Position numbers and translations under genes: made by a program
Virus record (IMG/VR): IMGVR_UViG_3300021962_000133
Span: 1-54,661 of that record
Origin: a virus
Lineage: Duplodnaviria > Caudoviricetes
Strand: one strand, 5' to 3'
Length of the DNA stretch: 54,661 nucleotides
In this document: positions 23,606-44,919 of the stretch, piece by piece
Position numbering within the stretch: the stretch's first letter is position 1
Layout of the letters: each line of letters begins with the position of its first letter
Notes under the pieces: model-generated
The model's input: only the letters and a program-made list of their open reading frames with translations
Databases searched by the model: none
Told to the model about the DNA's origin: nothing

Positions 23606-24034
23606 ATGATAACAGAATTTTGGGTCCATACAGACAACTTTAACCCAGCTGATTATTTTGGATTTGTTTACATTATCAAAAACAAAAATAACAACAAAAT
23701 ATATGTAGGTAAAAAGGTTTTTTGGAATAATGTCAAAACAAAACTAACTAAAAAAGAATTAGCAGAACAAATAGGACCTGGTCGAAAACCAACTACTAAA
23801 ATAACTCAAAAAGAATCTAATTGGAAACTTTATTGGGGTAGTTCAAAAGATCTTACAGAAGACTTAAAAACACAAGGAACAAGTAATTTTGAAAAAAAGA
23901 TATTAAAATTATGTAAAACTAAAAAAGAAATGACTTTTTTTGAAATGTATTATCAATGTAAATATGATGTTTTAACTACTAGCAGTTACAATGATAACAT
24001 TTTAGGAAAGTTCTATAGAAAAGACTTTTTATAA
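23606..24034 (+). CDS. GIY-YIG endonuclease
   Basis: GFVYII...IYVGKK, YWGSS, catalytic-type E and YN. Confidence 0.85.
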   Translation: MITEFWVHTDNFNPADYFGFVYIIKNKNNNKIYVGKKVFWNNVKTKLTKKELAEQIGPGRKPTTKITQKESNWKLYWGSSKDLTEDLKTQGTSNFEKKILKLCKTKKEMTFFEMYYQCKYDVLTTSSYNDNILGKFYRKDFL

Positions 24035-25009: not shown

Positions 25010-25785
25010 TAGAAAAAGGAAACAACATCCACAAACACCCCCAATTAAAACGTATTGTGGAACACAATGGTGAACAAATTAATTTTTTAGACCAAAGATT
25101 TTACAAAACAGAAACAGGTGAATATTATCCATCAGTAACTTCTATTTTAAATTTTTATCCAAAAAATGGATTTTTCCATGCTTGGTTAAAAGATGTAGGA
25201 CATAATTCAGATATTATAGCTAGAAAAGCAGCTGATGAAGGTACACAAGTACATAATGCTATTGAATCTTTTTTAGAAGGTAAAGAAATTAAATGGATGG
25301 ATGATAAAGGACATGCTATATATAATTTAGATGTTTGGAGAATGATTTTAAGATTTTCAGACTTTTGGAAAACATACACTCCAGAATTAATAGCCTCAGA
25401 AATTCATTTATTATCTCATGAGCATAAGTACGCTGGTACTTGTGATTTAGTAGTCAAATTAAATGATAAAGTTTGGTTATTAGATATAAAAACATCAAAC
25501 TCATTACATACTAGTTATAATCTACAATTATCAGCTTATGCTAAAGCATGGAATGAAAAATATGATGACAAAATTGAAGAAACAGGAATCATATGGCTTA
25601 AATCAAGTAAACGTGGTTCAAAAGAAGGAAAATTACAAGGTAATGGATGGGAAATTATTCAAGGTGATAAAACTGTTGATGAATATTTTACAATGTTTAA
25701 AAACATTTACGAAATTTACTTACTTGAAAATCCTAATCAAAAACCAATATTTGAATCATATCCTACAAGTATTAAATTAGGTTAA
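25006..25785 (+). CDS. PD-(D/E)XK exonuclease (Cas4-like superfamily)
   Basis: YPSVTSIL, GTQVH, AGTCD...LDIKTS, QLSAY. Confidence 0.85.
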   Translation: MIEKGNNIHKHPQLKRIVEHNGEQINFLDQRFYKTETGEYYPSVTSILNFYPKNGFFHAWLKDVGHNSDIIARKAADEGTQVHNAIESFLEGKEIKWMDDKGHAIYNLDVWRMILRFSDFWKTYTPELIASEIHLLSHEHKYAGTCDLVVKLNDKVWLLDIKTSNSLHTSYNLQLSAYAKAWNEKYDDKIEETGIIWLKSSKRGSKEGKLQGNGWEIIQGDKTVDEYFTMFKNIYEIYLLENPNQKPIFESYPTSIKLG

Positions 25786-25797
25786 TATTTATAGTTA

Positions 25798-26556
25798 ATG
25801 ATACGTCTAATTAACTTACTATTAGAAATAAACAATCAACCTAAAGCTATATTTCTAGCAGGTCCAGCTGGATCTGGTAAGTCTTATATATCAAAACAAT
25901 TAATACCTTCAACTATGCAAGTTATTAATGTTGATAATACTTATGAAGAACTACTTAAAAAAAGTGGTTTAGGCATGAAACAAAAAGATTTCACACCAGA
26001 TGAATTGTCTCAAGCAGCTAAATTAATGGGACAAGCTCAATCAGTGACTAGAGAAAAATATGCTAAAGCTTTAGAATCACTTCAAAATGTTGTTATTGAT
26101 GGTACTGGTGCTGCTTCTAAACCATTAATAAAAAAGAAAGTTGAATTAGAAAATCTTGGATACAAAACTATGATGATTATGATTTATGTTTCTCCATTAA
26201 CTTCATTACAAAGAAATTCTGAAAGAGATAGATCATTAATGCCATCTATTGTTTTAAGAACTTGGAGAGATGTTAATAAAAATATTGAATTATATAAAAA
26301 AGAATTTGGAAATAATTTTACATTAATTAATAATAACCCAGAAGAAACTAATTTAGGATTTTCAAAAGAATTAGTATCTCCTTATTTCCAAGATTCTAAA
26401 GCTAAATCTGGTAAAGAAAAATCACCAGAAGAAATTGAAAAAAAGAAAAAAGAAATTGAACAAATGAATCAAGATATTGAACAATTAGTAAAAAATCTCC
26501 CTAAATTTGATTCAATTGAAACAGCTAAATCTAAAATACAATCATTTCTGCAATAA
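25798..26556 (+). CDS. P-loop kinase (zeta-toxin/AAA_33-like) with MIRLINLLLE leader
   Basis: LAGPAGSGKS, INVD, VIDGTG, RNSERDR lid. Confidence 0.8.
   Translation: MIRLINLLLEINNQPKAIFLAGPAGSGKSYISKQLIPSTMQVINVDNTYEELLKKSGLGMKQKDFTPDELSQAAKLMGQAQSVTREKYAKALESLQNVVIDGTGAASKPLIKKKVELENLGYKTMMIMIYVSPLTSLQRNSERDRSLMPSIVLRTWRDVNKNIELYKKEFGNNFTLINNNPEETNLGFSKELVSPYFQDSKAKSGKEKSPEEIEKKKKEIEQMNQDIEQLVKNLPKFDSIETAKSKIQSFLQ
26470..26556 (+). repeat. 87-bp imperfect direct repeat, copy 1 (kinase 3' end)
   Basis: CAAGATATTGAACAATTAGTAAAAAATCT...; matches 27347-27433. Confidence 0.9.
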
Positions 26557-26582
26557 ACAATATTTATGACATATTAATAATC

Positions 26583-27260
26583 ATGGAAAAACAAATTTTA
26601 TCTAAAGAATTTTTAAAAATGCAAAAATTGGCTGGTTTAATTACTGAAAGTCAATTTAAACAATTAACTGAGCTTAAACAAGGGGATAAATTTAAAGGAG
26701 GTTTTGTATTGGCTTCAAATGATGATAATGATATTCCAGATACTGAATTTCAAGAATTATTAAAACTATCTAAGGATAAGGGTGTTACTAAAGATAATTT
26801 TGTAGTTATTTCTACAATAAATGATGAAAGGGTAAGGATTGATGGAGATTATAGTGGTAAACAGTTGGTATACTTAATAAAAAACAAACCTGAAATCTAT
26901 CAAATTAAAAATCCATCTTTAGTTAATGAAGTACGTACATCTTATCGAAAAGGTGATGATATATTTGATATTATAGATGCTGATGTTCTCCAACCAGACA
27001 TAGAGAAATATAGTTCGAAAAGTAGTGAATTGTTTGATGAACCTGGAATAGATAGATATAAAGGAGGTGTTGGATTTAAAACAGGCCGTCAAAAGGATAG
27101 AAATGGAAATTTTACATATACAGAAGAACAAAAAGAAAATTATTTGAAATATTTAAAGAAAAAAGTAGATGAAGGAAATGAAGTAGCTCAAGAGTTATTT
27201 AAAATAGCTAAAAAACTTCCTGAAGTACAATATCTTGTTAAACGATTAAACCTTAATTAA
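26583..27260 (+). CDS. Hypothetical protein with scaffold-like KMQKLAGLITE N-terminus
   Basis: 225 aa; own ATATTTAT motif and downstream terminator. Confidence 0.8.
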   Translation: MEKQILSKEFLKMQKLAGLITESQFKQLTELKQGDKFKGGFVLASNDDNDIPDTEFQELLKLSKDKGVTKDNFVVISTINDERVRIDGDYSGKQLVYLIKNKPEIYQIKNPSLVNEVRTSYRKGDDIFDIIDADVLQPDIEKYSSKSSELFDEPGIDRYKGGVGFKTGRQKDRNGNFTYTEEQKENYLKYLKKKVDEGNEVAQELFKIAKKLPEVQYLVKRLNLN

Positions 27261-27301
27261 TTTTTTATACAACATATAATAAAAAATCTTTAAAAGAAAG
27301 A

Positions 27302-27336
27302 GCTTGGTTATCCAAGCCTTTTTTGTTATATTTATA
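27302..27336 (+). terminator. Terminator overlapping both promoter motifs
   Basis: GCTTGG-TTAT-CCAAGC plus T run; TTGG(27304)-N19-TATATT(27327); ATATTTATA at 27328. Confidence 0.7.
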
Positions 27337-27346
27337 ATAAATTATA

Positions 27347-27433
27347 CAAGATATTGAACAATTAGTAAAAAATCTTCCTAAATTTGATTCAATCAGTACA
27401 GCTAAATCTAAAATACAAACATTTTTAAAATGA
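27347..27433 (+). repeat. 87-bp imperfect direct repeat, copy 2 (orphan kinase 3' end)
   Basis: Encodes QDIEQLVKNLPKFDSISTAKSKIQTFLK*; its TGA overlaps ATG 27430. Confidence 0.9.
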
Positions 27434-29178
27434 AAATAAACGCTGCTGAATTAGGAAAAAATATTATAGCTGAAGTATTAAATGAACCTGCTCCTGGTTT
27501 TTATCCTGGTGGATTTAAACCACCTCATAAAGGTCATTTAGAAGTGGCATTAGATGCTGCTTCAAGAAATTATATCACTAATTTAACTATTATTATAGGT
27601 AAAGGTGTTAGAGATGGTATTAATGCTGAACAATCAAAAGCTATTTGGGATATATATTTAAAAGCTTATCCTAATCAAAAAATTGATGTCATTATAACTA
27701 ATTCACCAAAAAACTCCCCAATAGATGATATTTTTAGTTATTTAGGAAAAGATGTTGATAATAAAGCTTATGTTATAGGAGGTAAAGCTGAAACTATAGA
27801 TCAAAATTATTTTGCTTCTTTAGAAGATAAATTTGGAGATAGAGTTAGAGCTGTAGCTATTGATGAAAAATTTGTTGATGAAAAAGGAAAAAGAATTTCT
27901 GCTTCTGCTTTTAGAACAACTATAGCTACTTTAAAAACTCAAATTTTTACAATTGAAAATACACAAAAAGGAACACCTGAATATAATAAAGCTGTAAGTG
28001 ACTATAATAACACTTATGATTATTTTAAAAGTTTATTCCCTGAAGCTGTTATTCAAAAAGGATATTTTAATGATATTTTAGAAGTATTAAATTTAAATCT
28101 TCCAAAACCAGAATCATTAAATGAGTCAATAGAAGAATATAAAAATAAATCAAAATTAAATCCTAATATTTTTGGAGAAAATGACAGATTAAGACCAAAT
28201 ATTAGACAAGCTTTACTTAAAATAGCTGATACATTTTGGAATAAACTTGATTTAGGGCAAGAATATGATGATGTTACTTTAACAGGTTCATCAGCTAATT
28301 ATAATTGGGGTACTAATTCTGATATTGATTTACATATAATTGTTGATTTTTCAAAATTTGGAGATCCTAAATTAGTTAAAAAATTATTTGATCAAGCTGA
28401 AGCTAATTGGAATAGTGCTTATAATCTTAAAATTAAAAACAATCCAATATCTCCATATGTCCAAGACTCAGAAGGACCTCATAGAAGTACAGGAGTATAT
28501 TCTGTTTTAGATAATGACTGGGTTAAAAAACCTGTTTATCAAAAAATAGAAATTTCTGATTCTGATATTGATAAAAAATCAAATCCATTTAAAAAACAAA
28601 TTGATCAATTAGAAAAAATAAAAGATCCTAATGTTGCTCTTAAAAAAATTGAAGTATTAAAACAAAAACTTAAAAATTTTAGAGAAACTGGTTTAGATAG
28701 AGAAGGTGAATATGCTGTTGAAAACTTAGCTTTTAAAGAATTAAGAAATTCAGGATATTTAGAAAAATTAACTAATATTAAAAGAGATTTAACAACTAAA
28801 GACTTATCTAAAGATTTAAATGAAAATATTGATAAAAATATAGTTGAAAAATTTATTCAATTTGCTTCTAATTTTTTAGATTTAGAAAATATTCCTGAAA
28901 TAAAATTTAAAGAAAAAGTATTAGCCAATGGTATTCAACCAAGTTTTGGAGGTTATATACCTGATTCAAATAGTATAGTTACTGATCCTTCTGGTAGACA
29001 TATTATTGATATATTAAGAACATTAGGACATGAATTAGTTCATGCTAAACAAAATGAATTTAAACCTTTAAACCCAAAAGATGGAGCAACAGGATCACCA
29101 TATGAAAATGAAGCTAACGCTGTAGCTGGCATAATGATGAGAATGTTTGCTAAACAAAACCCCAATATATTTCAATAA
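27430..29178 (+). CDS. Three-domain protein: HIGH-family nucleotidyltransferase + Pol-beta-type nucleotidyltransferase + HExxH zincin
   Basis: PGGFKPPHKGH and ISAS; GSSANYNW...SDIDLH; LGHELVH...YENEA. Confidence 0.8.
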   Translation: MKINAAELGKNIIAEVLNEPAPGFYPGGFKPPHKGHLEVALDAASRNYITNLTIIIGKGVRDGINAEQSKAIWDIYLKAYPNQKIDVIITNSPKNSPIDDIFSYLGKDVDNKAYVIGGKAETIDQNYFASLEDKFGDRVRAVAIDEKFVDEKGKRISASAFRTTIATLKTQIFTIENTQKGTPEYNKAVSDYNNTYDYFKSLFPEAVIQKGYFNDILEVLNLNLPKPESLNESIEEYKNKSKLNPNIFGENDRLRPNIRQALLKIADTFWNKLDLGQEYDDVTLTGSSANYNWGTNSDIDLHIIVDFSKFGDPKLVKKLFDQAEANWNSAYNLKIKNNPISPYVQDSEGPHRSTGVYSVLDNDWVKKPVYQKIEISDSDIDKKSNPFKKQIDQLEKIKDPNVALKKIEVLKQKLKNFRETGLDREGEYAVENLAFKELRNSGYLEKLTNIKRDLTTKDLSKDLNENIDKNIVEKFIQFASNFLDLENIPEIKFKEKVLANGIQPSFGGYIPDSNSIVTDPSGRHIIDILRTLGHELVHAKQNEFKPLNPKDGATGSPYENEANAVAGIMMRMFAKQNPNIFQ

Positions 29179-29729
29179 TGATAGCATTAAAAGATTTGTT
29201 TTTAGAAGTAAATAAAACGCAGTATACCATATACTGTGATATGGATGGTGTATTATGTGACTTTGATGGTCGCTTTGAATTTTACACTGGTATGTCGTTT
29301 GATGATTATAAAATTAAATACGGTGACAAAAAAGCTTATGATAAAATAAGCGAAATAGGAGAAAATTATTGGTCCAATATGAAATGGGAGAAGAATGGAA
29401 AAGAATTATGGAATATAATTAAAATCCATAACCCATATATTCTTTCATCACCAGGCTATTTTACAGGTGCTAAAGAAGGAAAATTAAAATGGATTAAAAA
29501 GAATTTGGGTATTCCTGAAAGTAGAGTTATATTCAAACAATCTAAAGATAAAAAAGATGCTTCTGGAAAAAATCAAGTATTAATTGATGATCTCCCATCA
29601 AACATCTCAGATTGGAAAAGTGCAGGTGGTATAGGAGTTAAATACAATTCATCCAGTCCAGAATCTGCTTACAAAAAATTAGAAGAATTAGGTTTATATG
29701 AAAGAGACATTACTAAAAAAGGAGTTTAA
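29178..29729 (+). CDS. HAD-family 5'(3')-deoxyribonucleotidase-like protein with MIALKDLFLE leader
   Basis: DMDGVLCDF, LSSP, K..WI, LIDD. Confidence 0.85.
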   Translation: MIALKDLFLEVNKTQYTIYCDMDGVLCDFDGRFEFYTGMSFDDYKIKYGDKKAYDKISEIGENYWSNMKWEKNGKELWNIIKIHNPYILSSPGYFTGAKEGKLKWIKKNLGIPESRVIFKQSKDKKDASGKNQVLIDDLPSNISDWKSAGGIGVKYNSSSPESAYKKLEELGLYERDITKKGV

Positions 29730-30276
29730 TCCAGCTGATGTTCAGCGTTTAAGAAATTTAGTTACTAGAAAATATAATGACGCTACTAAAATACAAGTAG
29801 GTTATGATAAAAATCAAACAGATTATAAAGAAGGTGATATCTGGGAAGAAAATAGTAAAACATGGACTATTAAAAATGGTATAAAACAAACTGTTACTAA
29901 GTTAGATAAATTTAAATCTTATTATACAATACCTTTAGTATGTCCTTCATGTAGTGGACCTCTACATAGTGATAGTCCTGCTGTTAAAAAATTATTTAGT
30001 ATCCATAATATGTGTCCAAAATGTGTTGCTACAATGGAAACTAGATTAAAAGCAGAAGGTAAATATGATGAGTATGAAAAAAATCTAATGGTTAAAAATA
30101 AAGAATCAATGGTTGATGATTTTGAATTAGCTATTGGAGAATGGTTATCTTCTAAAAATGATACTTTTATAACTGAACAGGGTGATGTTGAAAATTGGTC
30201 TGGTGGTAAAATTAGTGAAGAAGAAATTAAACAAATAAAAGAATATATTCAAAAATTACGTGAATTAGAGTTATAA
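29698..30276 (+). CDS. Hypothetical Zn-ribbon protein
   Basis: CPSC...CPKC. Confidence 0.7.
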   Translation: MKETLLKKEFNPADVQRLRNLVTRKYNDATKIQVGYDKNQTDYKEGDIWEENSKTWTIKNGIKQTVTKLDKFKSYYTIPLVCPSCSGPLHSDSPAVKKLFSIHNMCPKCVATMETRLKAEGKYDEYEKNLMVKNKESMVDDFELAIGEWLSSKNDTFITEQGDVENWSGGKISEEEIKQIKEYIQKLRELEL

Positions 30277-30316
30277 TTACTTATTTTATTCATATTTATA
30301 AGTAAACTATAATAAT

Positions 30317-30670
30317 ATGCCATACACATCAGTTGGAAAATGCGTCTATAAAAAGAATAAATCTGGAGAAAGAGGCGCTAAAGTTGGATGTACTAGAGGT
30401 GACGTACATCAGTATTTAAGAGCTTTATATGCTAGTGATCCTAAAGCTGCTAAAAATGAAATAGCTGAAATTAGAGGTTCATTAATTGAGGCAACTAAAT
30501 ATGCTGAATTAGAAGAAAATTATATGGGTGTTATTGAAAACATCAAATCTAGCTATGAAAAAATGGCTGAGATGAAACATAAAGATTTTCTTAAACAACT
30601 TAAAGAAGTAATGAAGATGAATAAAAATCTTCAAAAACTTCATAAAGAATATACTAAAGATTTAAAATGA
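30317..30670 (+). CDS. Hypothetical protein
   Basis: 117 aa; ATATTTATA upstream. Confidence 0.7.
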   Translation: MPYTSVGKCVYKKNKSGERGAKVGCTRGDVHQYLRALYASDPKAAKNEIAEIRGSLIEATKYAELEENYMGVIENIKSSYEKMAEMKHKDFLKQLKEVMKMNKNLQKLHKEYTKDLK

Positions 30671-31335
30671 GATTAATTTCATTATTAGAAGAAATCCTTT
30701 TAGAGGCTAAATTTAAAAACCTAAAAGAGGTTGATGATGAAGAATCAAACAATCCTGATCTTAAATCAACCATCAACCCTGGTTTAATATTTGATGATGA
30801 GTCAGATAGAAATAAAGCTTTTGAATGGTTACAGGATATATCAAATTACCCATCAGATGTTGTAACTCAAACAACTAGAGGTGGAGGTGGTAAAGGTACT
30901 GTGACTAAAATATATAAAGGTACTGAATTTGATAGTCCTGAAAATTATATTAAATTTACTAAAGGAGAAATGGATGGTATTCAAAATAGAAATGATTGGG
31001 ATGCCTTTAAATTTGGTCCATCTAATGCTAAAAAAAGAAGTAATTTAGAAAAACAAATTCAAACTATTGATTCATCATTTAAATTCCCATTAAAAATGGG
31101 ACCTGCTTCTCCACAAGGTAAAGAGTATGATAAAGAATTTTTAGCCCAAAAAACAGGTGGAAAAACAAGAGTACCTATTAAATTTACTAAAAAAGATAAT
31201 CTAGGTATAGAATTTCCAGCTGAAGAAAATGCTGGTTTAGGTTTTAATAAAAACAGATTAACTAAAATAATTAAGTTCTTATCAGATAAAATGATAGATA
31301 CTTATTATCATGAAATAACCTCATTCAAATACTAA
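30667..31335 (+). CDS. Hypothetical protein with MRLISLLEEILLE leader
   Basis: 222 aa, ATGA-coupled. Confidence 0.75.
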   Translation: MRLISLLEEILLEAKFKNLKEVDDEESNNPDLKSTINPGLIFDDESDRNKAFEWLQDISNYPSDVVTQTTRGGGGKGTVTKIYKGTEFDSPENYIKFTKGEMDGIQNRNDWDAFKFGPSNAKKRSNLEKQIQTIDSSFKFPLKMGPASPQGKEYDKEFLAQKTGGKTRVPIKFTKKDNLGIEFPAEENAGLGFNKNRLTKIIKFLSDKMIDTYYHEITSFKY

Positions 31336-31890
31336 ATGGCTTTAAAAGAACTTTTAGATAAATTAATTGAAGAAGAATTAGCTAAATTAAAAGAAGCTGA
31401 TGAAGAAGTTGTCTCTGATGAAGAAGAAATTGACATGGAACCTACAACTCCTGTTGAAGATCCTAAATCACCCACTTTTGAAGAAGATCCATTAGGATTT
31501 ATTTTATTCAAATATCCAACTTTAACTAAAACTTTAATTGATTTACTAACAAAAGATTTTAAAGATTATATTATTGGTGTATATGTTATAGCTCCTATAC
31601 CTACTACATTTAAAGTAGTATTACATAATAATCATTTTTTCTACTTAATTTATATGGGTAGATCTTGGGTAGCTAAAGTATCTGGTAAAAAATATTATCT
31701 ATTAAATTTAGGTGAAGAAGAAAGAGCTAGAGTAGCTATAGCTAATTTATTAATGTTAGGTAAAGCTAAAGAAGACATCCAAGGTCCAGACCAAACTCAA
31801 TCTGGAACTGATAAAACTGAACCTACTCCACCTGAAGCTACAACATCCCCAGAAGAAGAAACAACTTCAACAGAAACTGAACCAGCATAA
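31336..31890 (+). CDS. Hypothetical protein with MALKELL..LIEEE leader
   Basis: Acidic termini around a globular core. Confidence 0.75.
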   Translation: MALKELLDKLIEEELAKLKEADEEVVSDEEEIDMEPTTPVEDPKSPTFEEDPLGFILFKYPTLTKTLIDLLTKDFKDYIIGVYVIAPIPTTFKVVLHNNHFFYLIYMGRSWVAKVSGKKYYLLNLGEEERARVAIANLLMLGKAKEDIQGPDQTQSGTDKTEPTPPEATTSPEEETTSTETEPA

Positions 31891-31892
31891 TT

Positions 31893-32555
31893 ATGATTAA
31901 ATTACTTAAATTATTATCAGAATGTAATGATTGTGTTAGAAATAGTGTTAAATCACCATTATTATTAGAATCAAAACAACCTTTATCAGAGGGATTACAA
32001 TATCATTTAGATAATAAATTACCTATTTCTCAACCAATCTATAGATATGGTTCTGAATCTTATTTTGAATTGTTTAAAGAAGTTAGACAATTGTTTAATG
32101 AAGATAAAATAGAACTTTTTGGTGTTGATAAAGAAATTATAACTGAAACTGATTTAGGTGAATCATTTATATATAATAATGAAATATTATATTTAGATCA
32201 CATTTATGAGTCTGAAGATGCTGAAGCTGAAGGTATTAAAATGATAGCAGATGAACCATTTTCAGAATCAAAAACTAAAAAGAAAAATCCTCCACTTGGT
32301 AAACCAAAACGTGGTGGTTCTAAAAAGTTTTATGTTTATGTAAGAGATCCTAAGACTAAAAAAATTAAAAAAATATCATTTGGTGCTCAAGGTATGTCTG
32401 CTAAAATTAATAATTCTAAAAGAAGAGCAGCATTTTCTAAACGCCATAATTGTCCACAAAAAACAGACAAAACAAAAGCTTCATATTGGTCTTGTCGTTT
32501 ACCAAGATATGCTAAATTATTAGGTTTAAAATCAAACTATTCAGGATTTTGGTAA
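31893..32555 (+). CDS. Two-module protein with MIKLLKLLSE leader and a basic Cys/His C-terminal module
   Basis: KKFYVYV...ISFG...AFSKRHNC...SYWSC. Confidence 0.75.
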   Translation: MIKLLKLLSECNDCVRNSVKSPLLLESKQPLSEGLQYHLDNKLPISQPIYRYGSESYFELFKEVRQLFNEDKIELFGVDKEIITETDLGESFIYNNEILYLDHIYESEDAEAEGIKMIADEPFSESKTKKKNPPLGKPKRGGSKKFYVYVRDPKTKKIKKISFGAQGMSAKINNSKRRAAFSKRHNCPQKTDKTKASYWSCRLPRYAKLLGLKSNYSGFW

Positions 32556-32556
32556 G

Positions 32557-33075
32557 ATGACTAAATTAATTGATATATTAGGTGAAATTCTTTTAGAAAA
32601 AAGAAAAAGTAAAAAACGAGACAGATGTCTTCGTATTGCTGACCGTAAATTTGATAAACCATCAGCTTATAAATCAGGTGCTGTTGTTAGATGTCGTCGA
32701 GGTAAAATTTGGAAAGACTTAAAAGAATATGAGGATTTAACTACTAAAAATAGTTATATAGATATAGATGGTAATTTAGATCCTGATCATATTAAAAAGG
32801 ATTTAATTAAAACAAAACCATATTATAAATCATCACTACCTAATTATTTAAATGATGAACCATTAACTGATAATCAAATAGATCAATTAATAGAATTGTT
32901 TACTGATAATGAGGCTGATATATTTGATGCTGGTTATATGACGGACACTGATAAAATTAAGCTTAACCAGCGTTGGAGAAAAGCAGACATAGATGATTTA
33001 AGTGATTGGTTTGTAAGTTTTGTAGAAGGATTAGCTAATAATTGGGAAGAATATCCATTAGATGAAATTAGTTAG
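32557..33075 (+). CDS. Two-module protein with MTKLIDILGE leader
   Basis: Basic DRC...PSAYKSGAVVRCR module, then LKE, then an acidic module. Confidence 0.75.
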   Translation: MTKLIDILGEILLEKRKSKKRDRCLRIADRKFDKPSAYKSGAVVRCRRGKIWKDLKEYEDLTTKNSYIDIDGNLDPDHIKKDLIKTKPYYKSSLPNYLNDEPLTDNQIDQLIELFTDNEADIFDAGYMTDTDKIKLNQRWRKADIDDLSDWFVSFVEGLANNWEEYPLDEIS

Positions 33076-33325
33076 TTTATTAGTTGAAATTTTAAATGAA
33101 GATGAATCATTATACAAATGGTTCAAACGCCAAGGTACATCAGGTAAAGAAGGTGGATGGGTTGATTGTAATACTTGTAGAAAAGATAAAAAAACAGGTA
33201 GATTAAAATGTAAAGCTTGTGGTAGAAAAAAAGGTGAAACTCGAGCTAAATATCCTTCTTGTAGACCTACACCCGCTGGATGTAAGAAAAAAGGTAAAGG
33301 TAAAACATGGGGTAAAACTAAATGA
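33062..33325 (+). CDS. Small basic Cys-rich protein with MKLVSLLVEILNE leader
   Basis: SLYKWF...WVDC...CGR...YPSCRP. Confidence 0.75.
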   Translation: MKLVSLLVEILNEDESLYKWFKRQGTSGKEGGWVDCNTCRKDKKTGRLKCKACGRKKGETRAKYPSCRPTPAGCKKKGKGKTWGKTK

Positions 33326-34068
33326 TTAAACTTGTAGACATATTATTTGAAATGTATCCACCATATAAAGCAAATATGGTGAAAAAAACAAGATATAAAG
33401 CATCTGATGTTTGGACTAATGATCCTGAAACTATTGAAGAATTAATTACAAATACAAAAATTATTTGTGATAATTGTGGTTGGAGTTGGAAAAAAGAAGA
33501 TGGTGGTAAAGATTTATACATTTGTCATAAATGTGGACATAATAATAACCCTAATTTAAAAGAAGCAGATCCTAAAGTAGGTACAGGTAAAAAACCTAAA
33601 GGATCAGGTCGTCGTCTATACACAGATGAAGATCCAACAGATACAGTTAGTATAAGATTTAAAACAGTTCAAGATATTAAAAATACATTATCAAAATCAT
33701 CTTTTAAATCCAAATCTCATGCTCGTCAATCTCAAATTATTAATTTAATTCATCAACGAGTAAGAGCCGCTTATAATAAGGCTAAAGATCCTGAAGTTAA
33801 AGCACGTTTAAAACGAGGATTAATATATATTACAGCTAAAAAAGAAGCATCTAAAGAAAAAACAGAACGTTTACGTAATCAGAAAGAAAATTTAGATCCT
33901 AAAACATTTAAAGATAAAAAAACAGCTATTCCTTATGGATCAGGATATAGTCGTGTACAACAAAATGAAGACTTATTAACTGAAAAATGTTGGAAAGGTT
34001 ATACTCAAAAAGGTTTTAAAACAATGTTTGGTAAAAGATATCCTAACTGTATAAAAAATAAAAAATGA
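33322..34068 (+). CDS. Multi-module protein with MIKLVDILFE leader
   Basis: Zn ribbon CDNC..CHKC, GTGKKPKGSGRRLYTDE module, terminal KCWKGY...PNC module. Confidence 0.75.
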   Translation: MIKLVDILFEMYPPYKANMVKKTRYKASDVWTNDPETIEELITNTKIICDNCGWSWKKEDGGKDLYICHKCGHNNNPNLKEADPKVGTGKKPKGSGRRLYTDEDPTDTVSIRFKTVQDIKNTLSKSSFKSKSHARQSQIINLIHQRVRAAYNKAKDPEVKARLKRGLIYITAKKEASKEKTERLRNQKENLDPKTFKDKKTAIPYGSGYSRVQQNEDLLTEKCWKGYTQKGFKTMFGKRYPNCIKNKK

Positions 34069-34490
34069 TAAATTTATTAGATATATTAAATGAAGCAGAA
34101 TTAGGAAAATGTCCACCTGCTACTCAAGATATAGATTTAAATCTTGAAAATAGACAAAAAGCTATTGACAAATATGGTTATGGCCCATTAAATCCTAATG
34201 AACCTAATGAAAAATTTTGGGAAAAGAAAGTTGAAATGTGGCAATTAGATTCAATAGATGAAGCTAAAAAATCTTTATGTGGAAACTGTGCTGCTTTTGA
34301 TGTGACTAAAAAAACATTAGATTGTATAGCTAAAGGTATAGGAAATGATGAAGGTTCTGAAGATCCTTTTGATGTTATTGAAGCCGGCCAGTTAGGTTAT
34401 TGTAGATTCTTAAAGTTCAAATGTGCAGCTGCTAGAACCTGTGATGCTTGGGTTGTTGGTGGACCAATAATAGACAAAAAAGAAGATTAA
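34065..34490 (+). CDS. Cys-rich putative metal/Fe-S-binding protein with MINLLDILNE leader
   Basis: CGNCAAF...GYC...C...TCDAW. Confidence 0.7.
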   Translation: MINLLDILNEAELGKCPPATQDIDLNLENRQKAIDKYGYGPLNPNEPNEKFWEKKVEMWQLDSIDEAKKSLCGNCAAFDVTKKTLDCIAKGIGNDEGSEDPFDVIEAGQLGYCRFLKFKCAAARTCDAWVVGGPIIDKKED

Positions 34491-34491
34491 T

Positions 34492-34767
34492 ATGGATAAA
34501 CCATATGTAGATATAGAAACTACAGACAAATATATCATTAGAGAATTTGATGATAATATTGATCCAATAGAATTAATGTGGCATCGTGATGATGAAGATC
34601 GTATGGTTGAAATATTAGAACCTGGATTTAATTGGGGTTTTCAATTTGAAAATGAATTACCTTGGGAATTAGAAGAAAATTTAACTATATTTATCATGAG
34701 ACATGAGTGGCACCGTGTTATTAAAGGAACAGGTACACTCAAATTAAAAATACATAAGTGTGATTAA
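34492..34767 (+). CDS. Cupin-like protein
   Basis: WHRDDEDR and HEWHRVIKG two-His pattern. Confidence 0.6.
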   Translation: MDKPYVDIETTDKYIIREFDDNIDPIELMWHRDDEDRMVEILEPGFNWGFQFENELPWELEENLTIFIMRHEWHRVIKGTGTLKLKIHKCD

Positions 34768-35899
34768 ATTAGCATCTTTACTTTTAGAAATGATTATGGA
34801 AGGTTCGTTAACAGCGAATTCTGAAAAAGCTATTAATAAAATAGTAAATTCCCCAGAAGGTAAAGCTGCCGGTTTAGAAAACATGAAAGGTAAGGGTCGT
34901 ATAGCTAATAAAGGAAAAATAGATCCATCTCAATTTTTAAACATAATAAAAAAAGTATATCCTGATACAGAAGTATCGTCTTTTGGTCCTAAACAAGGTC
35001 CTAACCAATCTGATGCTAAACCTATAAAAGGTAGTTCTAAATATCATATGTTTCAATTTGACACAGAAGATGGTGAAGTTAAAATAGTATTAGCAGGTGG
35101 TAAAAATGCTGGTGAGCAATATGAAGAAGATTTATACAATGCTGTGAAATCAGTAGCTGGAAATAATATTGAGGATATTGATAATAAAACAGTTGTTCAA
35201 TTATTCAAATTCTTAAAAATCAACCCAGAAAATTTAAAACCAGAAGATGTAGTTTCAACAGGTAAACAAGATACAAAACGACCATTATCTTTAGATAAAG
35301 TTGAGAATATAGGATCTAAAATATCTGATATTACTATAAAATATGATGGTAATATTTATTATATATCTTTAAAAAATGTATCTGGGGCTGGTTTTTATAA
35401 TGGTGGTACTGTACCTTTTATAGTTTATGACAAAGATAAAAAAGTTATTTTTGATAAAAGTAAATATAATGATAAACCTATAATTAAAGATATATTTGAA
35501 TTATTTAAAGTTAATTCAGATAGAGTAGCTCAAGGTTTAAATGAATATGTAGATAAAGAAGGAGATATACCTAATACTTTTGAAACAGTATCTGGAGTAG
35601 ATATTAAAAAATTATCTAACTTAATAGGTTCTGGTTATGGATATGGTTATTATTATGCTAGAGAAAAAGCAAATGGTGATTTATTTATGACATCAATAAT
35701 GACTGAAAAAGACTTAGAAAAATTTGTTGGTGTTTTAAATAATGTTCAAATTAAATATCCTAATAAAGGAGCTAAAGCTTTATATATAAAAGTAGATACA
35801 AAGAGTGAAATATTAGGAGATATAAATTATATTATAGAAGTAAGAAATACATCAGGATTAGTATTGCCTTTATCTTTAAAGATGAAGTCAAGCAAATAA
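34760..35899 (+). CDS. Protein with MIKLASLLLE leader, possible restriction-endonuclease-like fold
   Basis: GEQYE...ISDITI...YISLK, a (P)D-(D/E/S)xK-like arrangement; GTG start. Confidence 0.6.
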   Translation: MIKLASLLLEMIMEGSLTANSEKAINKIVNSPEGKAAGLENMKGKGRIANKGKIDPSQFLNIIKKVYPDTEVSSFGPKQGPNQSDAKPIKGSSKYHMFQFDTEDGEVKIVLAGGKNAGEQYEEDLYNAVKSVAGNNIEDIDNKTVVQLFKFLKINPENLKPEDVVSTGKQDTKRPLSLDKVENIGSKISDITIKYDGNIYYISLKNVSGAGFYNGGTVPFIVYDKDKKVIFDKSKYNDKPIIKDIFELFKVNSDRVAQGLNEYVDKEGDIPNTFETVSGVDIKKLSNLIGSGYGYGYYYAREKANGDLFMTSIMTEKDLEKFVGVLNNVQIKYPNKGAKALYIKVDTKSEILGDINYIIEVRNTSGLVLPLSLKMKSSK

Positions 35900-35905
35900 A
35901 TTATA

Positions 35906-35980
35906 GACTGATTCATAGCCAGTCGCTCGTAAGAGATTAACATATGGTAGCTGTGGCACCTTAAAAAGGTGCCACCTTTG
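35906..35980 (+). ncRNA. Candidate structured RNA (hairpin/pseudoknot) plus terminator
   Basis: GACTG/CAGTC stem, CTC-GTAA-GAG hairpin, loop CATAGC complementary to GCTGTG, GTGGCACC/GGTGCCAC stem. Confidence 0.45.
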
Positions 35981-35981
35981 T

Positions 35982-36010
35982 TTGGCAAATTAAATAAAAA
36001 TTATTATATT
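35982..36010 (+). promoter_or_regulatory. Early-type promoter TTGG-N19-TATATT
   Basis: Exact consensus and spacing. Confidence 0.75.
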
Positions 36011-36020
36011 TAAATAAAGT

Positions 36021-37373
36021 ATGAAGAAAAAAATTGTAATTGTAGGCGCTGGTGTAGCAGGAGTAAATGCAGCTACTAAATTAGTTGACAATGGTTTTCC
36101 AGGTAAAAACATTACTATTATTGATATGGGTAATGATCCATACAATAGAAAACCAGAAGAAGTAATGACTGGATTTCTAGGAGCTGGAGGTTGGTCTGAT
36201 GGTAAATTAACTTATCATACAGCAATTGGAGGTCAATTATCTAAGTATGTTGGTGAAGAAAAAGCTATGAAATTAATGGATGAAGTTATTAATAACTTTA
36301 AACGTTTTCATCCTAAACCTGAAGAAGTACAATGTTCTAATCCAATAGAAGAACCTGAATTTATTAAACCATATTTTGGTTTAAGATTATTCCCAGTATG
36401 GCATGTTGGTACAGATTATCTTCATGAAATTGGTAAAAATTGGTATGATTATTTAGTATCTAAAGGTGTACAATTTATTTGGAATGAACGAGTATTTAAA
36501 GTTGATTTTGAATCTAATTTAGTATACTTAACTACTAAAGGTAAAGAAGGTCAATATGCTGTTGAATATAATGAATTAATTTTTGGTGTAGGTAAATCAG
36601 GTATTGATTTTGCTCAAAGTATTCAAGATGAATATCAATTAGAAACAGAACCTAAATCAGTACAAATTGGTGTTAGATTTGAAGCACCACAGAAACATTT
36701 TCAGGATTTAATTGATATTAGTTATGATTTCAAATTATATCGTAAGTTTGAAGATAAAGGTGTTTCATTACGTTCATTCTGTACAAATAATAATGCTGCT
36801 TATGTTGCTGTAGAAGATACTTATGGTAATCATTCATATAATGGTCATGCTAAAAAAGATCCTAAATATAGAAATGACATGACTAACTTTGGTATTATTA
36901 TGGAAATTAATAACATTGAAGATCCATTTGCTTGGTCACGTAAAGTAGTAAATAAATTACAATATGCTGGTACTGGTTTATACTATAGCCCATCTCGTAA
37001 ACCATCAACTACATCAGAAGGTGAAAGAGTTAGCTCTATTCAAATTGATAATTTAGATATTGTAAGACATGGAATGGGTGAATATTGGAATTATATTGAG
37101 GATTTTATTGAGGATATGAAAAAAGTATTTCCAACATTAGGTGATGATTGGGGTGTTTATGTTCCTGAAGTAAAATATCTTTCACCTGAACCTCTTGTGT
37201 ATCATAGTGATTTAGCTTTAGTTGAATATCCAAATGTTCATTTTGTAGGAGATGCTTTATCAGCTAGAGGTATTACTGTTTCAGGAGCACAAGGTATACT
37301 AGCAATATCAAAACTAATATCATCATCAGATGCTTGGGATAATCACATTGGAGACATAATTAATTGGAAATAA
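36021..37373 (+). CDS. FAD-dependent oxidoreductase
   Basis: VIVGAGVAG Rossmann motif, GAGGWSDGKL, GVRFE, RSFC, HFVGD. Confidence 0.9.
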   Translation: MKKKIVIVGAGVAGVNAATKLVDNGFPGKNITIIDMGNDPYNRKPEEVMTGFLGAGGWSDGKLTYHTAIGGQLSKYVGEEKAMKLMDEVINNFKRFHPKPEEVQCSNPIEEPEFIKPYFGLRLFPVWHVGTDYLHEIGKNWYDYLVSKGVQFIWNERVFKVDFESNLVYLTTKGKEGQYAVEYNELIFGVGKSGIDFAQSIQDEYQLETEPKSVQIGVRFEAPQKHFQDLIDISYDFKLYRKFEDKGVSLRSFCTNNNAAYVAVEDTYGNHSYNGHAKKDPKYRNDMTNFGIIMEINNIEDPFAWSRKVVNKLQYAGTGLYYSPSRKPSTTSEGERVSSIQIDNLDIVRHGMGEYWNYIEDFIEDMKKVFPTLGDDWGVYVPEVKYLSPEPLVYHSDLALVEYPNVHFVGDALSARGITVSGAQGILAISKLISSSDAWDNHIGDIINWK

Positions 37374-37377
37374 ACAT

Positions 37378-37614
37378 ATGACAAATTTAATGACAAAAAG
37401 GCTTAAAACACCAGACGGAAAAGTAGTATATTACTGTAATGGAAAATTACATAATTGGGATGGACCTGCTATTAAACATCCAAAAAGTTCTGGTCAAAAA
37501 GATGAATATTATATTCATGGTATACAATATACTAAAGATCAATGGTCTGAAGTAAAACGTGACTTTAATGGTGTACCTCCAGCTAAAGATCCTAAATATC
37601 AGACTAGAATGTAA
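37378..37614 (+). CDS. Hypothetical protein
   Basis: GKLHNWDGPA...EYYIHG beta-repeat unit. Confidence 0.7.
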   Translation: MTNLMTKRLKTPDGKVVYYCNGKLHNWDGPAIKHPKSSGQKDEYYIHGIQYTKDQWSEVKRDFNGVPPAKDPKYQTRM

Positions 37615-37616
37615 GT

Positions 37617-37645
37617 TTGGCTTTAGTAATTTTTTTAATTATATT
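37617..37645 (+). promoter_or_regulatory. Early-type promoter TTGG-N19-TATATT
   Basis: Exact consensus and spacing. Confidence 0.75.
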
Positions 37646-37653
37646 ATAATATT

Positions 37654-38178
37654 ATGAAAATAGGTTTATGTGGAACAATGTCAGTTGGTAAAACTACATT
37701 GATTAATAATTTAATTCAAATTTCTCATTTTTCTGATTATAATAAAGCTACTGAAAGATCTAAATATCTAAGTAGTTTAGGTATTCCATTAAATACTGAT
37801 TCTACATTAGAAGGTCAATTTATATTTTTAGCTGAAAGAGCTACTGAATTATTACAAACTAATATTTTAACTGATAGAACAATTTGGGATGTATGTGCTT
37901 TTACAGCTTTAGCTAAATCTATTGATAATGGAGATAAATTCTATTTTGAAAAAGCAGCTATGACATTAAAAAATAAATATGATTTAGTAGTTTATGTTAA
38001 ACCTGATGGAGTAGCTATTGAAGATAATGGTATTAGAGAAACAGATTCTACTTATAGAGATGAAATTGATTACCAAATTCGTAACTTATTAGAATTATAC
38101 CCACCTAAAAATTTACTAACTATATCAGGATCAGTAGAAGATCGCATTAAGGCTATTATTAACCATATTTATAAATAA
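37654..38178 (+). CDS. P-loop nucleoside/nucleotide kinase (NadR-kinase/AAA_28-like)
   Basis: GTMSVGKTT, TDRTIWD, YDLVVY, DNGIR, GSVEDR. Confidence 0.8.
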   Translation: MKIGLCGTMSVGKTTLINNLIQISHFSDYNKATERSKYLSSLGIPLNTDSTLEGQFIFLAERATELLQTNILTDRTIWDVCAFTALAKSIDNGDKFYFEKAAMTLKNKYDLVVYVKPDGVAIEDNGIRETDSTYRDEIDYQIRNLLELYPPKNLLTISGSVEDRIKAIINHIYK

Positions 38179-38188
38179 ACTTACAACA

Positions 38189-39154
38189 ATGAGCTCACAT
38201 TTTAATACGCCTGAATTTGACCATAAGGCTTTCGCTAAGTATTTAGCTGAAAACAAATTAACATCTTCTAGTAGACTTCATTCATTAAATGAAGGTATTG
38301 AAGAAGCAGTACCATTTGAAAAAGATGCTTTAGATGAAGAATTAACAGTAGCAGATATTAATAAAAAATATACTGAAATGCTTAATAAAAACAAAGCCAC
38401 AACTTTATCAGATGTAGCTAAAGCTTTAGGTGTAACAGAAAAAGAAATGGCTAAAGCTTTCTTTAAATCTTCTTTAAAATTAAAAGAAAATGAAGAATTA
38501 GAAGAAATGGCTAATTTCTTTAAAATCACTAAAGACCAAAAAGATAAACTTAATCCAGACAAATATGTAGGTACTAAAAAATTAGTAGCTCAAGCATTAA
38601 AAGGAGATGAAGTTGAAGCTGATCAACCATTCACTAAAGCAACTATTAAAGCTATTATAGGTAAAGATCCATTAAAAGATTTTAATTCTGTATTAGACGC
38701 TGAAGAAATTGGTGCTTTAGGAAAAACATCAGATGTTAATCCACAAGAACCAAAAACACCAGGTGTTAGAGGTCGCAAACCAGGAACTTCTACCCCAACT
38801 AAAAAAGAACCATCTATGTCAATGGCTAAAGATAAAGTTGTTGGTGTTAGAGATATTGATGGACCAAGATCAGCTGATGTAACTGCCGCTGAAAAAGAAT
38901 TAGGTGGAGCTAAAGGTATTGAAAGAACAATTGCTATTGATAAAGCAGGCAAAGCTATTATTGCTAAATTAAAAGATAGTAAAGATAAACTTATTGATCC
39001 TAAATTTAAAGAAGCTAAACGTTTAGCATTTATATCTTATTTAACTCGTTCAAAAGCTGAAGGTGGTAAAATTGGTTTAAGAAAAGGTGGTGAAACTTAT
39101 ACTAACTTGTTACAAGTTTGGGACAATACAGTTGAAGATTTAATTTCTAAATGA
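38189..39154 (+). CDS. Putative internal head protein
   Basis: FDHKAFAKYLAENKL leader; several L-x-E sites; RGRKP; ATATTTATA upstream. Confidence 0.6.
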   Translation: MSSHFNTPEFDHKAFAKYLAENKLTSSSRLHSLNEGIEEAVPFEKDALDEELTVADINKKYTEMLNKNKATTLSDVAKALGVTEKEMAKAFFKSSLKLKENEELEEMANFFKITKDQKDKLNPDKYVGTKKLVAQALKGDEVEADQPFTKATIKAIIGKDPLKDFNSVLDAEEIGALGKTSDVNPQEPKTPGVRGRKPGTSTPTKKEPSMSMAKDKVVGVRDIDGPRSADVTAAEKELGGAKGIERTIAIDKAGKAIIAKLKDSKDKLIDPKFKEAKRLAFISYLTRSKAEGGKIGLRKGGETYTNLLQVWDNTVEDLISK

Positions 39155-39486
39155 AAAAATATATAACTCAAATTGTTATACTCTTAGGAACTATAGGATT
39201 ACTATGGTTCCTTTTAGTTCGTAATGATATTTCTTCATCAGAAGCTAAATATCAAAAAACTATTGATTCATTAAATATTGAAATAGGAAAAAAAGATATT
39301 AAAATAGCATCTTTAGATTCTACTAGACATATTTTAGATTCTTTAGTAATTTTAGATAAAGCTAAATTAGCTAATATAGCTAAAAAAGCTCAACAATATA
39401 AAGAACAATATGAAAAAGAACATAATCGCATCAATAATATGTCTGATGATGATATCATCAGCGAGTTCACAACAGCGTTTAACTGA
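39151..39486 (+). CDS. N-terminal TM + coiled-coil protein (i-spanin-like topology)
   Basis: Hydrophobic residues ~4-23 followed by heptads. Confidence 0.6.
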   Translation: MKKYITQIVILLGTIGLLWFLLVRNDISSSEAKYQKTIDSLNIEIGKKDIKIASLDSTRHILDSLVILDKAKLANIAKKAQQYKEQYEKEHNRINNMSDDDIISEFTTAFN

Positions 39487-39817
39487 TTCAACGGTAATAG
39501 TTCCTATTAAATCATTAAAAAACGCTCTTTTAGTTAAAGTTGAAAGAGATAATCTTAAAAAAGAATTAGTTATTGCTCGTGATTCAATAAAAGCTATGGA
39601 CACTATTATTTTTAGAAAAGATATTATAATTAGTGTTTTAGACTCTACTCGTGTTGTTTTAGATAGTAAAGTTAAAGATTTGAATGGAGTAATTATAGCT
39701 AAAGATGGTATTATAAATGAAAAAAGTAAAAAAATTACAAAATTAAATAATACAATTAAAAAATTAACTGGAGCATTTATGATTTCAGTTGTAGGTTTTA
39801 TTATAGCACTTTTATGA
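39410..39817 (+). CDS. Signal peptide + coiled coil + C-terminal TM protein (possible spanin partner)
   Basis: MKKNIIASIICLMMISSASS signal; terminal GAFMISVVGFIIALL; overlaps the previous ORF. Confidence 0.6.
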   Translation: MKKNIIASIICLMMISSASSQQRLTDSTVIVPIKSLKNALLVKVERDNLKKELVIARDSIKAMDTIIFRKDIIISVLDSTRVVLDSKVKDLNGVIIAKDGIINEKSKKITKLNNTIKKLTGAFMISVVGFIIALL

Positions 39818-41412: not shown

Positions 41413-41429
41413 TAAATATTTATATATAA

Positions 41430-43313: not shown

Positions 43314-43345
43314 GTATATATTATAAGTAGTATAATTATACCTTC

Positions 43346-44194: not shown

Positions 44195-44196
44195 TC

Positions 44197-44766: not shown

Positions 44767-44902
44767 AAAAACTACACTCTCAGCTTCATCACTTTATAAA
44801 GTAAAACCAAAGAAGAGAAGACCAGGAATCCATGCAAAAACTAAATCAAGTAAATTAAAACAAAGTAAAAACTATAAAAAACTGTCAGTTGGGCAGGGAT
44901 AA
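44753..44902 (+). CDS. 49-aa very basic peptide (not in ORF track)
   Basis: MAKAKKTT...KPKKRRPGIHAK...NYKKLSVGQG; fills the gap exactly. Confidence 0.7.
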   Translation: MAKAKKTTLSASSLYKVKPKKRRPGIHAKTKSSKLKQSKNYKKLSVGQG

Positions 44903-44919
44903 TTAATATTTATACATAA

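Follow-up and report, generated by a model that had tools for sequence, protein, structure and literature searches.

Unrelated proteins of bacteriophage T4 (IPI, IPII, IPIII and Alt) share a capsid-targeting sequence (CTS) at the N-terminus. It is about 10 residues long, is hydrophobic at positions 4, 7 and 8, has a Glu at position 10 and contains an (L/I)-x-E cleavage site. As summarized in a review (PMC9026906), the T4 prohead protease gp21 cleaves after L/I-X-E, and residues 1–10 of IPIII are enough to have a protein packaged. The same review ascribes importance in targeting to positions 4 and 7 and in processing to positions 8 and 10, and states that an Asp at position 10 prevents processing. 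We analyzed the DNA of IMG/VR virus record IMGVR_UViG_3300021962_000133, a complete contig of 54,661 bp (hereafter the window) with a G+C content of 26–31% across most of its length. An initial annotation of the window had noticed that about ten proteins with unrelated bodies, encoded between 25798 and 35899, begin with a similar leader; it compared this leader with a T4 sequence of about 10 residues that ends in Glu and is cut by gp21 at (L/I)-x-E, a description that agrees with the review (PMC9026906). On the strength of the comparisons below, we consider it likely that the leaders, 9–22 residues long, are T4-type capsid-targeting propeptides removed by a gp21 orthologue. The tagged proteins, which include two recognizable enzymes among about a dozen, are probably packed in the capsid. 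Such a mechanism is already known from T4; what is notable here is the size of the tagged set, its enzymatic content, the interchangeable tags and a copy of the scaffold tail.

A strict leader was defined as M-x(1-2)-L-x-x-[LI]-[LF]-x-E (regular expression L..[LI][LF].E beginning at residue 3 or 4), and a loose one as hydrophobic-x-x-hydrophobic-hydrophobic-x-Glu (h..hh.E, Tyr allowed), sought in the first 30 residues for the window counts. Nine proteins fit the strict rule, those starting at 25798, 29178, 30667, 31893, 32557, 33062, 33322, 34065 and 34760. The strict expression matched 15 times in the 16,834 positions of the 68 called proteins (1.8 expected). Twelve of these matches were within the first 8 residues of the nine leader proteins (0.015 matching N-termini expected by chance), and the remaining three were in the scaffold-like protein (two) and the capsid protein (one). 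The loose rule matched 19 of the 68 proteins, compared with about four expected, and was found in 12 of the 15 genes of the cluster at 25798–35899 versus 7 of 53 elsewhere (Fisher p = 2e-6). The leaders are clustered far beyond chance. Nine strict and three looser leaders make up the 12, and the leaderless genes of the cluster are 29698, 30317 and 34492. ORF (open reading frame) calls reproduced all ten N-termini of the initial annotation at their coordinates. Nine of the ten begin alike under the strict rule, while the protein at 31336 (MALKELLDKLIEE) fits only the looser one, at E13; the looser leaders at 26583 and 27430 had been missed, as had that at 38189, which lies beyond the annotated range. 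The kinase at 25798 (Zeta_toxin/AAA_33), the HAD protein at 29178 (NT5C) and the gp21 homologue at 46446 (Peptidase_S77, 1.1e-30) were all confirmed.

We further checked the leader in relatives, using 114 IMG/VR loci with 1445 called genes. The strict leader occurred at 42 N-termini and after only 9 of 7469 internal Met residues. The loose motif was present in the first 24 residues of 219 of 1204 proteins of at least 110 amino acids, as against 34 (residues 61–84) and 38 (C-terminal window) of the same proteins. When body families were clustered after removal of the first 24 residues, they were bimodal. Some were mostly tagged (the kinase in 21 of 23 members; others in 18 of 23, 9 of 10 and 8 of 8), and others never were (portal, 0/64; the 29698 family, 0/62; the 43346 family, 0/50). 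The strict leader was found in at least 15 body families, and 16 of the 81 families with three or more members were mostly tagged.

Among the 42 unique strict leaders of the window and relatives, the commonest form is M-I-K-L-x-D-[IL]-L-x-E; after M1, the column counts are 31 for I2, 32 for K3, 42 for L4, 22 for D6, 42 for I/L7, 40 for L8 and 42 for E10, with L4, I/L7, [LF]8 and E10 fixed by the pattern used to select them. An alignment of 15 kinase orthologues served as an independent check: besides the P-loop, it shows M1 and E10 without variation and I2, L4 and L8 with almost none. At N-termini h..hh.E outnumbered h..hh.D by 269 to 58, whereas internally the counts were 664 and 691; this N-terminal bias is as a Glu-specific protease predicts.

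Gene position was analyzed in a complete relative (G001, 171 kb with terminal repeats), for which ORFs were called on the whole record. The loose leader was present in 12 of the 35 ORFs that make up the head module and the cluster preceding the terminase (Fisher p = 7e-8 versus the rest), in 4 of 59 ORFs of the tail blocks, in none of 22 small ORFs at the other end and in none of 98 early/replication-side ORFs, so the leader is not equally frequent in early-side and head-region genes. This ORF calling took the place of a degenerate DNA pattern of the leader, which proved too coarse when applied to two whole relatives.

The leaders are modular, as the initial annotation had supposed: they precede unrelated folds in the window (a P-loop kinase, a HAD nucleotidase and at least eight uncharacterized bodies), they recur across families in the relatives, and different tags are exchanged on orthologues. 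One kinase bears MDNFNLKKYLTEG... where its relatives have MISLVQLLKE, and an orthologue of the 34065 protein bears MDNFDLKKYLAEG... ('tag C', which fits h..hh.E with Tyr as hydrophobic). The NT5C body was followed through 120 database representatives. Thirty-three begin directly at the conserved YTIYCDMDG, 21 are fused behind a HExxH domain like the C-terminus of the 27430 protein, 65 have an extension of 10–20 residues, and the one remaining representative lacks the YTIYCDMDG motif. The extension fits h..hh.E in 19 of the 65, and among the other 46 recurrent forms such as MKNLIDLLE and MKKIPTLLDLYE follow h..hhE. Leaderless NT5C genes lie in syntenic clusters, which weakened the notion that a tag is required on every separate polypeptide; at least one body can do without it. 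Two of 19 NT5C junctions examined were in-frame fusions to a zinc-ribbon module. In the window the 27430 gene, with its HExxH end, overlaps the NT5C gene at 29178 by one base, and in other phages the HExxH and NT5C parts were fused (the 21 representatives above), adjacent and untagged, or separated only by one in-frame stop codon (L141).

A third N-terminal motif, MDNFDLKKFLTEN... / ...KAFAKYLAENKLT, was observed at 3358–3684 (minus strand) and 38189–39154 (plus strand), as well as in Flavobacterium phage vB_FspM_immuto and several IMG/VR relatives. It substitutes for the MIKL-type leader on orthologues in two families. Relatives of the 27430 protein begin with MSLGDYLAEQILLEE and MNLGQHIAKQLLEE.

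The scaffold-like protein of the window is related to the leaders in two ways. First, it has internal leader-like motifs, DLEEILAELE (47563–47583) and NLEEILAELD (47866–47886), and in all 16 distinct scaffold orthologues (D/N)L(E/D)E[IL][IL]xE[LI], the 7-mer of the leader, occurs internally once or twice in an otherwise poorly conserved acidic region. Second, the extreme C-terminus of the orthologues, RM(K/Q)KLAG[IL][IL] (RMKKLAGIIK in the window, 48292–48321), recurs near the N-terminus of ten other proteins, where it is followed by T/N-E; the 26583 protein of the window (MQKLAGLITE, 'tag B') is among them. In the window and related loci, 34 matches of the RM.KLAG type were detected, including 18 C-terminal ones (14 in scaffold orthologues) and 10 near N-termini, and one NT5C database homologue begins with MIKLAGILNE. 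For tag B the likeness to the scaffold tail is a direct identity. The common leader M-I-K-L-x-x-I-L-x-E shares with the tail the pattern M-x-K-L-x-x-h-h; this likeness holds only at the level of the pattern, because a position-specific scoring matrix built from the nine window leaders (columns 3–9) placed the tail heptamer KKLAGII outside the top 25 of 16,726 heptamers. At the level of sequence, then, some tags copy a scaffold element. A tentative extension, to which we give distinctly less weight, is that the tags are molecular mimics of scaffold docking elements, so that cargo would compete or co-assemble with the scaffold at the same site in the capsid interior. Equally speculative is the picture that would follow, in which a tailed phage loads its cargo by an encapsulin-like logic and does so with exchangeable tags and with polyprotein junctions. 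A complex prediction for the scaffold and the 87-residue protein at 33062–33325 scored 0.00 and gave no answer in either direction.

The T4 sequences themselves allow a residue-by-residue comparison. The N-termini of IPII and IPIII (MKTYQEFIAE), Alt (MELITELFDE) and gp24 (MAKINELLRE) all place the h..hh.E rule on E10, and in gp23 the rule falls on E65. At the sequence level, positions 4, 7, 8 and 10, to which function is ascribed in T4 (PMC9026906), are the conserved columns of the present leaders. In both systems a common tag of this length, with (L/I)-x-E at its end, precedes otherwise unrelated proteins, genes for a gp21-family protease and an acidic scaffold of the gp22 kind lie nearby, and several of the cargo or presumed cargo proteins are basic. 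The differences are that the present leader has another sequence (MIKLxDILxE versus MKTYQEFIAE); that about 12–13 tagged genes lie in one 10-kb, putatively late cluster, compared with four scattered genes in T4; that the presumed cargo includes a zeta/polynucleotide kinase (PNK)-like kinase, an NT5C nucleotidase and a nucleotidyltransferase/HExxH protein; and that there are at least three interchangeable tag forms, one of which copies the scaffold tail.

Two other systems offer partial parallels. Encapsulin cargo-loading peptides are short address peptides that bring unrelated enzymes into an HK97-fold shell, and are C-terminal and uncleaved, with no protease involved. In contrast, the window tags are N-terminal, the shell protein belongs to the gp23 family, and encapsulin was absent from Pfam and PHROGs searches. 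The propeptides of giant-phage head and ejection proteins, with which Atu_ph07 gp53 (below) may be grouped, are long and heterogeneous and are not known to form a single portable 10-residue tag. In phiKZ, 201phi2-1 and SPN3US a diverged gp21 homologue cleaves many of the head proteins on the C-terminal side of Glu, and propeptide sites are redundant (PMC9026906); tandem sites are also present in the window proteins at 30667, 32557, 33062 and 34760.

The likeness of the capsid N-terminus, which the initial annotation had added to its series, was its weakest item. MSTINSLLE has a partial h-x-x-h-h-E and is one residue shorter than the leaders. By eye, MSTINSLLE/STTG resembles the T4 gp24 propeptide MAKINELLRE/STTT (slashes here and below follow the Glu). 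In BLAST of the window capsid protein the N-termini did not align to gp24 or gp23, so homology to the gp24 propeptide was not supported and the likeness is kept as a resemblance only. The capsid body belongs to the gp23 family (3e-29), with the gp23 alignment starting at window residue 70, and a longer gp23-like N-terminal domain ahead of that residue may be the part removed. The capsid N-termini of two relatives (L058 and L075) read ...ISNLLND and ...ISNLLSD, the Glu of the window being replaced by Asp; in T4 an Asp at that position blocks processing and leaves targeting intact.

Evidence from virions comes from distant relatives. A tblastn search with the kinase detected homologous bodies in phages Melnitz, HTVC008M, Atu_ph07 (5e-18) and RsoM2USA. 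The homologues begin with MKTFAELQE/GVYDP in Melnitz and MIPFILKE/GLYDP in HTVC008M. The pairing of a kinase gene with a cytidylyltransferase-like gene is common to the window (25798–29178) and HTVC008M, a T4-like pelagiphage (L128, 2453–4902), and both proteins of the HTVC008M pair begin with short MKT/MIP-type leaders. In RsoM2USA five consecutive ORFs beside TerL (254–258) begin with MTTFKEYLLE, MNQTFKQFLTE, MKFSDYILE, MFDMLKGLINAPITE and MRLKQFLME, and ORF257 was among ten virion bands identified (PMC8504454). The mass of ORF257 is suggestive but could not be used: the paper gives 17.57 kDa, of unclear derivation, and the GenBank ORF has 19.65 kDa whole and 17.97 kDa after E15. In Atu_ph07 the kinase-body homologue is contained in gp53 (L130; 778 residues, computed mass 87.07 kDa). 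According to Table S5 of its description (PMC6102473), gp53 (87.08 kDa) was detected by mass spectrometry in purified virions (31 unique peptides, 45.5% coverage), and peaks in gel band 9, whose other most-abundant proteins are mostly of about 17–29 kDa; this position suggests processing. Table S3 of the same paper lists a gp21 match. The gp53 sequence has an N-terminal ...DLNE/A (8), its kinase lies between ...EVTE/G (252) and ...NLTE/LFDT (458), and NLNE/LFDT is repeated at 582, so that it looks like a polyprotein.

These data bear on a rival explanation, in which the leaders are protease substrates and the tagged proteins are components of the assembly core (like gp67, gp68 and gp22) that are degraded and expelled. 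The scaffold does carry the leader motif internally, small leader-bearing proteins lie beside the protease in the head modules of relatives (L072, 15477; L075, 15544), and several tagged proteins lack a recognizable enzymatic domain. However, the P-loop kinase and the HAD nucleotidase are complete enzyme folds, catalytic motifs included, and have no obvious scaffolding role, 7 of the 12 tagged proteins have basic mature forms (pI 8.5 or higher), like DNA-associated internal proteins, and the kinase homologue is retained in Atu_ph07 virions (PMC6102473). We regard this explanation as improbable.

The structure of the leader could also be read as that of an amphipathic helix by which these proteins dock onto a common non-capsid partner, for example a hub protein of phage or host, a chaperone or a membrane. 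An AlphaFold2 model of the kinase had a mean predicted local distance difference test (pLDDT) score of 86.7, and its best fold matches were zeta toxin and bacterial polynucleotide kinase. Residues 1–10 form a helix with a mean pLDDT of 50, so the leader is predicted to be a low-confidence helix detached from the confidently modeled body, which agrees with such docking. A partner of this kind leaves unexplained the invariant terminal Glu and the E-over-D bias, as well as the scaffold copy of the motif, the identity of positions with the T4 CTS and the clustering with head genes. Features of a signal peptide were missing: by inspection, the leader does not resemble a Sec/Tat signal (basic n-region, unbroken hydrophobic core of 10 or more residues, A-x-A-type cleavage site), since it has 9–10 residues and ends in Glu, its hydrophobic positions are broken by D/E/K/S and its hydrophobic run is shorter than 8 residues. 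Docking to another partner is, in our judgment, slightly less probable still than a degraded core.

Leu and Ile codons vary among the leaders (TTA/CTA/CTT/TTG and ATA/ATT) and the upstream DNA shows no conservation, indicating that the constraint acts on the peptide. That the shared start is a translation-initiation feature of mRNA in an AT-rich genome, or a remnant of gene duplication, is thus very improbable, despite the low G+C content (26–28%), the AT-rich leader codons and the lack of Shine-Dalgarno-like sequences ahead of the genes, since residues are fixed where synonymous codons vary, other genes of the same genome have no leader, composition does not explain the position-specific L4, L7, L8 and E10, and the bodies are unrelated folds on whose orthologues different tags interchange.

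T4-type capsid targeting, as proposed in the initial annotation, was favored by every computational test run on these sequences. We infer docking, cleavage, retention and injection for this phage as follows. The tagged proteins would be made late, together with the head proteins, and their amphipathic leader would dock them in the assembling prohead, at its scaffold core or inner shell. Next, the gp21-type serine protease (46446–47078) would cleave after the leader Glu, and the mature proteins would be retained inside the head together with the DNA and probably accompany it into the host. The cargo would comprise the zeta/PNK-like kinase, the NT5C nucleotidase, the multidomain nucleotidyltransferase/HExxH protein and several basic proteins.

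Several observations weigh against this proposal. The Atu_ph07 and RsoM2USA evidence concerns distant relatives; Table S5 for Atu_ph07 also lists TerL and RecA-like proteins (PMC6102473), and virion preparations purified with polyethylene glycol may carry contaminants. Our literature search yielded no data on virion content, cleavage or injection in any Far-T4 phage, and the paper on that group (PMC4360716) mentions neither a protease nor internal proteins. The loose motif gives false positives: it matches 25 of 85 TerL N-termini in the relatives, and in the window the seven matching proteins outside the cluster compare with about four of 68 expected by chance. The tag is not obligatory, as seen from the 33 leaderless NT5C representatives; relatives of one leaderless NT5C gene lie in the same syntenic cluster at 32 of 49 loci, and at 13 of the 19 junctions examined the leaderless NT5C follows directly after a stop codon, untagged. 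The tag C protein at 3358–3684 is on the minus strand and distant from the late units. Finally, late expression of the tagged genes is suggested solely by a promoter-like motif.

This motif, ATATTTATA, occurs 15 times in the window, 14 times on the plus strand, and 13 of these copies lie directly upstream of genes. As noted in the initial annotation, the cluster lies downstream of it: the tagged genes form three units headed by copies at 25785–25793, 27328–27336 and 30292–30300 (plus strand). The motif also precedes tail, portal and scaffold/capsid genes and appears to behave like a late promoter. A terminator-like hairpin with a 10-bp stem (35953–35975, plus strand) closes the cluster, and a weaker one (27302–27317) ends the first unit. 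Sites of the motif include 5107, 11369, 14083, 20897, 25785, 41416, 44906 and 50788. Between its end and the start codon there are mostly only about 4–15 nt (about 100 nt for the copies at 27328 and 47117), and the genes that carry it show no visible Shine-Dalgarno-like sequence upstream. Should it act as a -10-like late promoter, many of the late transcripts would have no 5' leader or hardly any. At 235–1644 six copies of TATAGTATAAGAAAG (0–1 mismatch, about one expected) were observed ahead of small plus-strand ORFs. They look like an early-promoter/translation-start cassette distinct from the late motif.

The coordinates of the tagged genes and of the T4-type head module, which was identified with Pfam and PHROGs, are given in Table 1. 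Nearly all window genes are on the plus strand, and no tRNA genes were found in the 54,661 bp. The protease is 34% identical to T4 gp21, and GELDHP and SSRGMGS, which we take to be the motifs holding the catalytic His and Ser of gp21-type proteases, are aligned and conserved. The protein at 44197–44766 may, by its position, take a gp67/gp68-like role. Among named phages, the closest in capsid protein are Flavobacterium phage vB_FspM_immuto (54% identity), Microcystis phage Mel-JY01 and Rhodothermus phage RM378, and the group containing them was termed 'Far-T4' in a 2015 paper (PMC4360716). By its sequence the window is an uncultured Far-T4 phage, a distant relative of T4. A megablast of 25798–45000 against phage genomes gave no match, an NCBIfam scan of 20 proteins added nothing, and neither the search for related loci with 34760–35899 nor its tblastn against phage genomes found a relative.

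Table 1. Tagged genes and head-module genes of the window
Position	Strand	Product	N-terminus or leader	Evidence and remarks
25798-26556	+	P-loop kinase (zeta-toxin/polynucleotide-kinase-like)	MIRLINLLLE (25798-25827)	Zeta_toxin/AAA_33
26583-27260	+	Protein of no recognized family	22 residues, MEKQILSKEFLKMQKLAGLITE ('tag B'; 26583-26648)	Scaffold-tail repeat, then I-T-E
27430-29178	+	Multidomain protein, 582 residues	19 residues, looser, MKINAAELGKNIIAEVLNE	HxGH-type nucleotidyltransferase motif, nucleotidyltransferase-like middle, HExxH C-terminal domain
29178-29729	+	NT5C-type 5'(3')-deoxyribonucleotidase (HAD)	MIALKDLFLE	Pfam match from residue 18
30667-31335	+	Protein	MRLISLLEE-ILLE	Two tandem sites, E9 and E13
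31336-31890	+	Acidic protein	MALKELLDKLIEE, weaker	h..hh.E at E13
31893-32555	+	Basic protein	MIKLLKLLSE	C-terminal phrog_7595 domain
32557-33075	+	DUF5872-like protein	MTKLIDILGE-ILLE	
33062-33325	+	Very basic Cys-rich protein, 87 residues	MKLVSLLVE-ILNE	Mature pI 10.1
33322-34068	+	Basic zinc-ribbon-like protein	MIKLVDILFE	
34065-34490	+	Protein	MINLLDILNE	L028 orthologue bears MDNFDLKKYLAEG instead
34760-35899	+	Protein, 379 residues	MIKLASLLLE-MIME	phrog_8438; GTG start
38189-39154	+	Protein with 'tag C'-like N-terminus	...KAFAKYLAE	h..hh.E at E21; outside 25798-35899
39814-41412		Large terminase		Pfam/PHROGs
41430-43313		gp20 portal		Pfam/PHROGs
44197-44766	+	Small head-module protein	N-terminal helix ...IKKIIE...	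T4 gp67/gp68 position, in the portal region-to-protease interval
46446-47078	+	Prohead protease, T4 gp21 orthologue (Peptidase_S77)		PF03420, 1.1e-30; phrog_207, 1.3e-54
47230-48324	+	Acidic scaffold-like protein		Between protease and capsid genes
48349-50028	+	Major capsid protein, gp23 family	MSTINSLLE	Pfam/PHROGs

Two further features of the window were observed outside the tagged cluster. Directly upstream of the terminase, two small overlapping ORFs (39151–39817) begin with a transmembrane-like segment (MKKYITQIVILLGTIGLLWFLL) and with one that resembles a lipoprotein signal (MKKNIIASIICLMMISSASSQQ); they are kept in relatives L009 and L028 and may be lysis or spanin-type genes. A 142-residue ORF at 23606–24034, between tail genes and a primase-like gene, holds FGFVYIIKNKNNNKIYVGK, which resembles the GIY-YIG homing-endonuclease motif.

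If the leaders are capsid-targeting propeptides, an N-terminal h-x-x-h-h-x-E leader together with an S77 protease would predict the capsid-borne, first-acting proteins of uncultured phages, and the tag could serve as a natural protein-packaging handle for Bacteroidota phages. Should the tentative scaffold mimicry also hold, sequence alone would suffice to predict which proteins uncultured marine and freshwater T4-like phages package. Speculatively, the tagged kinase, deoxyribonucleotidase and nucleotidyltransferase/metalloprotease-like protein are candidates for immediate host takeover or counter-defence. Capsid targeting of the T4 type would then not be confined to the T-even phages; it would be an ancient trait, greatly expanded both in the Far-T4 phages that abound in aquatic habitats and in related T4-like phages of Pelagibacter, Methylophilales, Ralstonia and Agrobacterium.

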